Shown in pieces: positions 14,068 through 14,810 of a stretch of DNA of 64,000 bases. The stretch lies in the NCBI GenBank assembly GCA_000004695.1, contig CM000154.2, positions 576,001 to 640,000 on the forward strand, in the 5' to 3' direction. The notes beneath the pieces were generated by a model. That model saw only the letters and a program-made list of their open reading frames with translations, was not told the origin of the DNA and searched no databases. Within the stretch, counting starts at the first letter, position 1, and every line of letters starts with the position of its first letter. The translations under genes were made by a program, and so were the position numbers. The stretch comes from Dictyostelium discoideum (Eukaryota).

Positions 14068-14291
14068 ATGGGTCAATCAAGTTCTAAATGTAAGAATATA
14101 TATATTTTTTTTTTTTTTTTTTTATTTCTCTCCCTATTTCCCTATTTCTCTATTTCCTTATTTCTCTATTTCTCTATTTCTCTATTTCTTAAAACTTATA
14201 TTGTGTAATTTTCATTAAACAAATAATAGCTGTTCAAGGTGGAAATAAAAGTGGTGGTGGTTCTAGACCACGTGGTACCTTTTACGCATAA
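14068..14291 (+). CDS. Tiny two-exon gene for a 27-aa Gly/Ser-rich peptide with an N-myristoylation consensus (MGQSSSK..)
   Basis: Exon 1 is 14068-14089 (ATG GGT CAA TCA AGT TCT AAA T|GTAAGA) and exon 2 is 14230-14291 (..AATAG|CT GTT CAA GGT GGA AAT AAA AGT GGT GGT GGT TCT AGA CCA CGT GGT ACC TTT TAC GCA TAA). The peptide is MGQSSSKSVQGGNKSGGGSRPRGTFYA. The 140-bp phase-1 intron contains (CTATTTCTCT)n. AATAAA lies downstream. A paralogue sits 580 bp away (next feature). Confidence 0.4.
14123..14203. repeat. (CTATTTCTCT)n-like polypyrimidine minisatellite inside the intron of the first MGQS mini-gene
   Basis: tctctccctatttccctatttctctatttccttatttctctatttctctatttctctatttctt gives about 7 imperfect 10-mer units. 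It is unusually C-containing for a Dictyostelium-type intron. Confidence 0.8.
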
Positions 14292-14647
14292 AAAGTTTAA
14301 ATCAATTAATTTGATATATCAAGACTCTAGTTCTTCAAATAAAGCTAAATATTAAAAAAATAAAAAAAAAAAAAATAAAAAAAAATAAAAAAAAAAAATT
14401 TTATCTTCTTGATTTTGTGACCATTGGTATTTGAAAAAGTTTATAAATTTCTTAAGACATATCTTTTTTTTTATTTAGATTTTTTTTATTTGTTTTGAGC
14501 TGAGGATTACAGTTTTTTTTTTATTTTAATTATTATTTTTTATTTTTTTTATTTTATAATTTCTATTTTTCTAATTTTTTTTATTTATTTTATAAAAAAT
14601 CTTTAAAGAAATAAATACAACAATAATAAATTTAATTAAGTAGAGTA

Positions 14648-14810
14648 ATGGGTCAATCAATTTCAAGAGGTTTGTATTTGAAATAATTTTTTTTTTTTTT
14701 TATAAAACTAACCCTAAACAATAATAATTATTTTTTATTTTTTAGCAGTCGCAAGTGGAGGTAATAGAAATAGAGGTTCAGGGGTTAGAACCAGCACATT
14801 CACTTGTTAA
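14648..14810 (+). CDS. Paralogous tiny two-exon gene for a 28-aa peptide (MGQSISR..)
   Basis: Exon 1 is 14648-14669 (ATG GGT CAA TCA ATT TCA AGA G|GTTTGT) and exon 2 is 14746-14810 (..TTTTAG|CA GTC GCA AGT GGA GGT AAT AGA AAT AGA GGT TCA GGG GTT AGA ACC AGC ACA TTC ACT TGT TAA). The peptide is MGQSISRAVASGGNRNRGSGVRTSTFTC. It shares start context, the phase-1 intron after codon 7 and a GGN[KR]..G..R..TF core with the upstream copy. Confidence 0.4.

Follow-up and report, generated by a model that had tools for sequence, protein, structure and literature searches.

The stretch analysed here, hereafter the window, is 64 kb of Dictyostelium discoideum chromosome 5 of the AX4 type, and all window coordinates refer to it. 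Two very short, split open reading frames (ORFs), which we named mini-genes A and B, lie on its plus strand with their ATGs 580 bp apart (14068 and 14648). Reading of the sequence and in-silico splicing gave the same layout for both: a start ATG GGT CAA TCA with A at position -3, an exon 1 of 22 nt, a phase-1 GT..AG intron after codon 7 and a short, GC-rich exon 2.

14068..14089, plus strand: exon 1 of mini-gene A, ATG GGT CAA TCA AGT TCT AAA T, encoding MGQSSSK and the first base of codon 8
14090..14229, plus strand: intron of mini-gene A, 140 nt, phase 1, GTAAGA..ATAG, 19% GC
14230..14291, plus strand: exon 2 of mini-gene A, including the TAA stop at 14289-14291
14648..14669, plus strand: exon 1 of mini-gene B, ATG GGT CAA TCA ATT TCA AGA G, encoding MGQSISR and the first base of codon 8
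14670..14745, plus strand: intron of mini-gene B, 76 nt, phase 1, GTTTGT..TTTTAG, 12% GC
14746..14810, plus strand: exon 2 of mini-gene B, including the TAA stop at 14808-14810

Structure and products of the two mini-genes

Mini-gene A encodes MGQSSSKSVQGGNKSGGGSRPRGTFYA (27 aa) and mini-gene B MGQSISRAVASGGNRNRGSGVRTSTFTC (28 aa, with a C-terminal Cys). Each product has a net charge of +4, carried by K7, K14, R20 and R22 in A and by R7, R15, R17 and R22 in B, and neither contains Asp or Glu. The two peptides are 44% identical and have in common MGQS.S[KR].V, GGN[KR] and a TF two residues before the end. A first-pass annotation of this DNA had proposed the pair, and each of its positions was reproduced by our reading, as were the two product lengths and the terminal Cys in one product, that of B; the donors are GTAAGA and GTTTGT and the acceptors ATAG and TTAG. 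Its joint motif GGN[KR].G..R..TF, however, fits neither peptide exactly; what held is GGN[KR] and the TF near the end.

Both units have what is expected of a spliceosomal gene, that is a favourable ATG context, an AT-rich GT..AG intron ending in TAG, an open junction, a stop and a downstream AATAAA. The exons of A and B contain 32-44% GC in a surrounding region of 10-19% (44% for exon 2 of A), and coding GC was 31-44% as compared with 6-27% for introns and flanks. Outside the exons, A and B could not be aligned with each other beyond their shared AT-richness, hence the duplication is old.

Orthologues in related genomes

The mini-genes lie next to a class-I aminotransferase gene in the window, and the orthologous aminotransferase loci were read in related genomes. 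There the mini-genes are found on the opposite strand to the aminotransferase and upstream of it, in a stretch of about 3 kb without called genes. The divergent isolate at locus L005 has approximately 78% nucleotide identity to the window.

L005 (divergent 'D. discoideum' isolate): A is MGQSSSKSVQGGNKSGGGSRSRNTFYA and B is MGQSSSRAVASGGNRNRGSGVRTSTFTC
L007 (D. citrinum): A is MGQSSSKSVQGGNKSGGGSRARGTFYA and B is MGQTSSRAVASGGNRNSGGSGGRTNTFTC
L008 (D. firmibasis): A is the intact frame GQSSSKSAVGGNKSGGSSSRGTFNA with TTG for ATG and a mutated AATAAA; B is MGQSSSKAVACGGKRNGGSSVRGTFNA
L006 (D. dimigraforme): A is degraded (ATA start, eroded exon 2) and B is absent

Every intact orthologue has the 22-nt exon 1, the GT donor in the same place, a phase-1 AG acceptor and an aligned stop. 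The first-pass annotation had named a disrupted frame or a missing ATG in other species as one observation that would speak against genuine genes, and the pair passes this comparison with the exception of one lost start and one degraded copy: both genes are intact in the divergent isolate and in D. citrinum, as is B in D. firmibasis, but the start of A is lost in D. firmibasis, and in D. dimigraforme A is degraded and B missing. These losses indicate that the family undergoes birth-and-death turnover.

Selection on the coding sequence

In pairwise comparison with the orthologues, exon 1 was 86-100% and exon 2 71-97% identical, as compared with 41-76% for the introns and 23-79% for 150-nt flanks. 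Exon 1 of A is 100% identical in the divergent isolate and D. citrinum, and exon 2 of A is 94-95% identical to these two and 74% to D. firmibasis. For B the values are 86-95% in exon 1, and in exon 2 97% (divergent isolate), 84% (D. citrinum) and 71% (D. firmibasis). Intron identity among orthologues was 41-76% for A and 44-66% for B.

Lengths followed the same division. The coding sequences, given in the order window, L005, L007 and L008, are 84/84/84/81 nt for A and 87/87/90/84 nt for B, hence they differ by whole codons only and TF-x-x-stop stays in frame. Intron lengths of 140/133/103/110 nt for A and 76/118/82/117 nt for B show no regard to frame.

Variable columns in five orthologue groups numbered 33, 36 and 56 at codon positions 1, 2 and 3, respectively (chi-square p = 0.023). 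The proportion of nonsynonymous differences (pN, Nei-Gojobori) was below that of synonymous ones (pS) in 24 of 25 orthologue pairs, the exception being A of the window against the divergent isolate, a pair with zero synonymous differences. Pooled over the orthologues, pN was 0.135 and pS 0.322 (pN/pS approximately 0.4), and examples of dN/dS are 0.10 for A of the window against D. citrinum and 0.15-0.22 for B of the window against the divergent isolate and D. citrinum. Between A and B within the window pS was 0.75, which is saturated, and pN 0.39. The divergence of the two copies, a comparison which had been suggested as a test, is thus not neutral drift. The earlier view of A and B as real, selectively maintained micro-protein genes was supported by the orthologues in the divergent isolate, D. 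citrinum and D. firmibasis, which retain the position and phase of the intron, the frame and the stop, conserve their exons better than their introns and show a pN lower than pS. From this pattern we consider A and B to be, very probably, genuine and conserved coding genes.

Other ways of reading the frames were rejected. With its intron retained, A would give a 46-aa peptide (14068-14208) in which MGQSSSK is followed by a hydrophobic tail rich in Phe, Leu and Ser; the length and frame of this tail are not conserved among the orthologues. Unspliced ORFs as the true products (46 aa for A, 12 aa for B) disagree with orthologous intron lengths that vary out of frame. The units are not exons of a larger gene, as each has its own ATG and a conserved stop and both flanking genes are on the opposite strand, and neither strand has an antisense or longer overlapping ORF that would account for the conservation.

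Expectation by chance

Within the window, the 15-mer TAATGGGTCAATCAA is confined to the two start sites; at one mismatch or fewer about 0.06 sites were expected, and none of 100 shuffles contained two. A structural scan for ATG-Gly, S6, K/R7, a phase-1 donor, an acceptor, a product of 24-36 aa and [TSN]F-x-x-stop returned exactly A and B in the window, nothing in 100 simulated 64-kb sequences and no match in approximately 85 kb of unrelated Dictyostelium loci. Low-complexity peptides and an exon-2 similarity between A and B that is weak when taken alone (E of about 10) are what one would point to if the two ORFs were a chance resemblance in AT-rich intergenic DNA. Both scans put that expectation at about zero, however, and conservation across species argues against it as well; since orthologues exist, the chance reading is effectively refuted and we give it practically no weight.

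A family of five types

The pair is only part of a larger family, which lay beyond the reach of the first-pass annotation: 19 genes of types A to E, all with M-G-[QA]-x-x-S-[KR], a phase-1 intron and a C-terminal T-(x)-F-x-x end. The further members (types C, C2, D and E) are found in the relatives on the other strand of the same intergenic region. Types C and C2 are MGAKSSKPRYTVQGSNSSSGRGGSRSTFYA and variants (MGAKSSKP...TFYA), with an exon 1 of 25 nt and the phase-1 intron after codon 8; type E reads MGA[KR]SSKPR...NSNSRG.SVRSTTFNA and type D MGQSNSR.IYIE.AEKPN...GKTNFNY. Net charge is mostly +3 to +5 in types A, B, C and E, among which an acidic residue occurs in only one member, and +1 to +2 in type D. 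The additional members lie at the following positions.

L005, unannotated: 3352-3624, 4281-4452
L006, unannotated: 3740-3901, 4368-4533, 4866-5029
L007, unannotated: 2331-2550, 3096-3288, 3753-3929, 4196-4361
L008: 3156-3326, 4015-4180

A profile search with the concatenated family alignment against 5.8 billion proteins gave RB653_008205 of D. firmibasis as its sole match. This protein (L008 2430-3326) is annotated with 123 aa, and its last 31 residues are exactly the D-type prediction with the same junction of exons 1 and 2 and the same stop. Upstream of this part lies an N-rich exon with a weak, sub-threshold DSPc match (E = 6e-4); it is fused to the whole D-type mini-gene by way of an acceptor that lies a few nucleotides before the D-type ATG. 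The D. firmibasis annotation was produced with MAKER using genome-guided Trinity RNA-seq transcripts as evidence (PMC11193728). As a transcript-informed model, RB653_008205 is indirect evidence for transcription and splicing of at least one family member in the predicted way. The fusion in the model is probably a wrong merger; the alternative is an intron in the 5' untranslated region.

Five family peptides had no Pfam-A match at E <= 10, and the Protein Data Bank gave no meaningful match (best E = 1). Every homology test was negative, and the mini-proteins belong to no known protein family.

Annotation status and genomic location

The aminotransferase gene lies on the minus strand from 12099 to approximately 13690, and its database cluster includes DDB_G0287711 (XP_637002.1) of D. 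discoideum AX4. On the other side an R3H-domain gene (minus strand, 15245-16219) belongs to a cluster that includes DDB_G0287869 (XP_637003.1), also of AX4. The accessions of the two flanking genes are consecutive in AX4 and in a second D. discoideum annotation (KAM9946939 and KAM9946940), and no gene is annotated between them; this includes L011 (GCA_054883475.1), an independent D. discoideum assembly that is 98.9% identical to the window over 13600-15300.

In an exact look-up both peptides and four relatives were absent from a 15-billion-protein collection that holds the AX4 proteome. Control peptides of 21 and 31 aa are present in the same collection, and in our view the absence thus points to missing annotation rather than to a length filter. 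A and B are unannotated in the records searched. With approximately 5-6 genes per species, the family is missing from the annotations of AX4, D. citrinum, D. dimigraforme and other isolates, and in D. firmibasis it is represented only by the fused model. A literature search on these N-termini, on Dictyostelium micro-proteins or small ORFs, on ribosome profiling and on the myristoylome returned nothing relevant, and metagenome DNA scanned for the exon-1 sequences gave no match.

The two flanking genes are adjacent in the window and in L011. In five other genomes they are 25-50 genes apart on the same chromosome, as judged from the locus tags ACTFIR_001232/001263, ACTFIY_002486/002461, ACTA71_008012/007962 and RB653_008204/008155. 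At the R3H-orthologue loci of D. cf. discoideum, D. citrinum, D. dimigraforme and D. firmibasis there are no mini-genes, and similarity to the window begins only at about 15075.

15075..15145, no strand: synteny breakpoint (inversion end); as far as 15145 the window can be aligned with the mini-gene cluster of L005, and starting at 15075 with the R3H 3' flank of L001

From this switch in alignment, together with the adjacency of the neighbours, we placed the end of an inversion approximately 265-335 bp downstream of B, within the ancestral cluster between B and C. Types C, D and E were searched for in the window and none was found; as the inversion cuts the ancestral cluster, the AX4-type C, D and E genes must sit at the other breakpoint, outside the window, where they are expected beside the Sos7-like gene that follows R3H downstream in the relatives. 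The family would have arisen by local duplication, and the AX4-type cluster would later have been split by the inversion, leaving only A and B beside the aminotransferase.

Predicted N-myristoylation and a proposed mechanism

Substrates of N-myristoyltransferase (NMT) have an obligatory Gly2, with Ser or Thr preferred at position 6 and basic residues at positions 7-8. When a rule of the PROSITE PS00008 type was applied at residue 2, the N-myristoylation consensus that had been claimed for the pair held at the level of the motif. Gly2 (GGT/GGC/GGA), Ser6 (TCT/TCA) and Lys/Arg7 (AAA/AGA/AAG) are invariant in all 19 members, with synonymous variation in their codons. The gene starts with ATG GGN in A, B and 16 of 17 relatives, the exception being D. 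firmibasis A with TTG GGT. Residue 3 is Gln in types A, B and D and Ala in types C and E; it is uncharged and neither Pro nor aromatic, as the NMT rule demands. A basic cluster free of acidic residues, the second component of a 'myristate plus basic' anchor, is found in A and B but not in the D types (+1 to +2).

At 27-28 aa the chains are shorter than the ribosomal exit tunnel (about 30-40 aa), so any modification should follow release from the ribosome. NMT accepts short free peptides in vitro and acts post-translationally on newly exposed glycines. Provided that A and B are translated, the motif makes it likely that both are myristoylated.

We propose the following mechanism. Each mRNA would be spliced at the phase-1 intron after codon 7, as the conservation of that intron suggests, and then be translated. 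Met1 would be removed and Gly2 N-myristoylated by NMT, probably post-translationally; here the invariance of G2, S6 and K/R7 is our guide. The myristate would then act together with the four basic residues, unopposed by acidic ones, to tether a Gly/Ser/Asn-rich and probably disordered peptide to acidic cytosolic leaflets. More speculatively, R-x(1-2)-T-F-x-x-COOH could be the functional end, serving as a docking or phospho-acceptor site; phosphorylation of Ser or Thr could work as an electrostatic switch that frees the peptide from the membrane; and the terminal Cys of B could carry a second lipid. We read the family as one of very small, cationic micro-proteins with a conserved C-terminal T-F-x-x, probably N-myristoylated and membrane-tethered.

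Any specific downstream function is proposed with low confidence. As a tentative and rather unlikely suggestion, the mini-proteins could be 'SH4-only' anchors that act in trans under control by phosphorylation, either tuning the charge of the inner leaflet or the availability of phosphatidylinositol 4,5-bisphosphate (PIP2) or recruiting partners through the R-x-T-F-x-x end, and they would then be among the smallest intron-containing protein-coding genes described. Still more speculative is the idea that A, B or their paralogues could be precursors of small phosphorylatable developmental signalling peptides of Dictyostelium such as SDF-1.

Weighing of the alternatives

Our preferred reading, to which we assign a probability of roughly 0.6, is that A and B are real, independently transcribed two-exon genes of a lineage-specific family of 26-34-residue proteins that work by the proposed membrane-tether mechanism. 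Several observations weigh against it. Values of dN/dS are moderate (0.1-0.9) and the counts per gene small. In D. firmibasis A (L008 5286-5096, minus strand) has TTG as its start and AATGAG for AATAAA, in D. dimigraforme A (L006 approximately 5460-5370, minus strand) is degraded and B absent, and the loss or degradation of A implies that individual members are dispensable. No family member was found at the aminotransferase loci of D. purpureum and P. violaceum, hence the family is young or fast-evolving. Splicing of the A and B mRNAs is deduced from conservation, and the D. firmibasis model may in part be ab initio, since it joins D to an exon further upstream. Finally, a chain of 27-28 aa is released before its N-terminus leaves the ribosome, so that the usual co-translational route through methionine aminopeptidase and NMT is inapplicable.

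This last point also bears on the possibility that the genes are real and translated while their peptides are N-acetylated or unmodified and are soluble, nuclear, RNA-binding or exported for signalling, with Gly2, Ser6 and Lys7 serving otherwise. Such products are shorter than the nascent chains that NMT normally encounters, their Gly/Ser/Arg-rich composition is that of many disordered nucleic-acid-binding tails, and the D types are not cationic (+1 to +2) yet have the same N-terminus. Against this stand the exact NMT consensus in all 19 members, with Gly2 and Ser6 codons that vary synonymously, and the activity of NMT on short free peptides in vitro and on new N-terminal glycines; we regard products without myristate as unlikely, though deserving of consideration. 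It is improbable that the conserved patches are non-coding RNA genes or cis-regulatory elements in which the ORFs are incidental. The frames are very short, annotation pipelines left them uncalled in six genomes, and a conserved non-coding 21-mer (GTGACCATTGGTATTTGAAAA) lies nearby, all of which would suit such elements; but length differences in whole codons, the excess of third-position changes and pN < pS argue otherwise, ATG, GT..AG and stop occur at equivalent positions in 19 genes, amino acids are conserved despite synonymous codon changes, and Rfam gave no match. We find it hardly probable, too, that the family is decaying and that A and B of AX4 are recently inactivated, intact-looking relics stranded by the inversion. 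Decay would agree with the lost ATG of A in D. firmibasis, with the degraded A and missing B in D. dimigraforme and with a breakpoint as close to B as about 265-335 bp on its downstream side. ORFs, splice sites and putative poly(A) signals are intact, however, both in the window and in the independent assembly L011, and the A and B proteins are identical or nearly so to those of the divergent isolate despite about 22% non-coding divergence.

Relation to known systems

Taking the membrane-tether reading as the basis, the mini-proteins can be compared with several lipidated or very small proteins. The Src-family SH4 segment (MGSSKSKPKD...) has in common with them the M-G-x-x-x-S-K NMT motif, after which there are basic residues but none that are acidic, and the C/E-type start MGAKSSKPR is close to MGSSKSKPK of c-Src almost residue for residue. 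By analogy, reversible binding to acidic lipids of the inner leaflet would be expected for both. Here, unlike in Src, the entire protein (27-30 aa) is the anchor and carries neither a kinase nor any further domain, lipidation is predicted and homology is not detectable; the resemblance is most likely convergence on the requirements of NMT and of a basic cluster. The 'PIPmodulins' MARCKS, BASP1 (CAP-23) and GAP-43 are lipidated, disordered, cationic and Ser-rich, and phosphorylation near their basic residues could detach them from the membrane, a likeness that is predicted for the mini-proteins; they differ in having 200-330 residues and a defined effector domain, and no sequence relationship to the mini-proteins was found. 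That the mini-proteins might sequester PIP2 is pure inference from this analogy.

Hisactophilin of Dictyostelium is reportedly an N-myristoylated, membrane-associated protein of 118 aa that binds actin and has a charge-dependent (pH) myristoyl switch. It has in common with the mini-proteins the organism and, by prediction, the class of small N-myristoylated proteins, but it is a folded beta-trefoil four times larger. Micro-proteins from small ORFs, such as sarcolipin (31 aa), are of comparable size, routinely escape annotation and function at membranes; sarcolipin and its like are single transmembrane helices, whereas the hydrophilic mini-proteins would need a lipid anchor, and an intron is unusual in ORFs so short. 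HssA/2C/7E is a small, Gly/Ser-rich, lineage-specific and clustered multigene family of Dictyostelium, with proteins that are about three times longer than the mini-proteins, Cys-rich and not known to have an MG N-terminus. The two families are alike in being small, Gly/Ser-rich and clustered, and the profile search returned no HssA/2C/7E protein.

By analogy, the mini-proteins would be of a known kind, joining the lipid-anchored disordered cationic peptides to the micro-proteins from small ORFs, and they most resemble a free-standing 'myristate plus basic' anchor. What appears to be new is the family itself, the combination of such extreme shortness with an intron, and the lack of its annotation in a model organism. 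D. discoideum is heavily used and has a curated genome, yet this mini-gene family is unannotated; spliced ORFs of fewer than 30 codons can thus be discovered from sequence and confirmed by comparative genomics. If lipidated, the products would be minimal, genetically tractable 'anchor-only' proteins, and models for myristoyl-electrostatic membrane binding, for post-translational action of NMT on very short chains and for the control of membrane signalling by micro-proteins. The finding is restricted in lineage to the D. discoideum clade.

Signals and repeats around the mini-genes

Putative signals, a repeat and a conserved block lie within and around the two genes.

13990..14036, plus strand: putative core promoter of A, TATAAAAA at 13990-13997 followed by a 39-nt T run
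14134..14189, plus strand: (CTATTTCT)x7 tandem repeat inside the intron of A, Tandem Repeats Finder score 91
14338..14343, plus strand: AATAAA, putative polyadenylation signal of A, 47 nt past the stop
14417..14437, plus strand: conserved non-coding block GTGACCATTGGTATTTGAAAA, 21 nt, between A and B, with TATA-like TTTATAAATTT after it
14891..14896, plus strand: AATAAA, putative polyadenylation signal of B, approximately 80 nt past the stop

A TATA box with oligo-dT is the classical Dictyostelium promoter layout, and the putative promoter of A is partly conserved in the divergent isolate. The CAAATAAAGCTAAAT block around the AATAAA of A is kept in the divergent isolate and D. citrinum, and reads AATGAG in D. 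firmibasis, where A is also without its ATG. The 21-nt block between the genes is identical in the window, the divergent isolate and D. citrinum and may be a promoter element of B; the AT-rich sequence that precedes it aligns poorly, and identity downstream is patchy. Around the AATAAA of B, the block ACCCAAAT.GAATAAAATAAAAAAATAA is conserved in the divergent isolate. The repeat in the intron of A looks lineage-specific, since the corresponding introns are shorter in D. citrinum and D. firmibasis and can be aligned only poorly there.

No tRNA gene was found anywhere in the 64 kb. The sole match to Rfam 15 was a sub-threshold mir-1252 at 14899-14963, outside the mini-genes, and an identity of A or B as a known non-coding RNA or a tRNA was rejected, as there was no Rfam match within them and no tRNA. 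The kilobases of highest GC content in the window are 26001-28000, 33001-34000 and 38001-39000 (0.34-0.37, as compared with an average of about 0.2).

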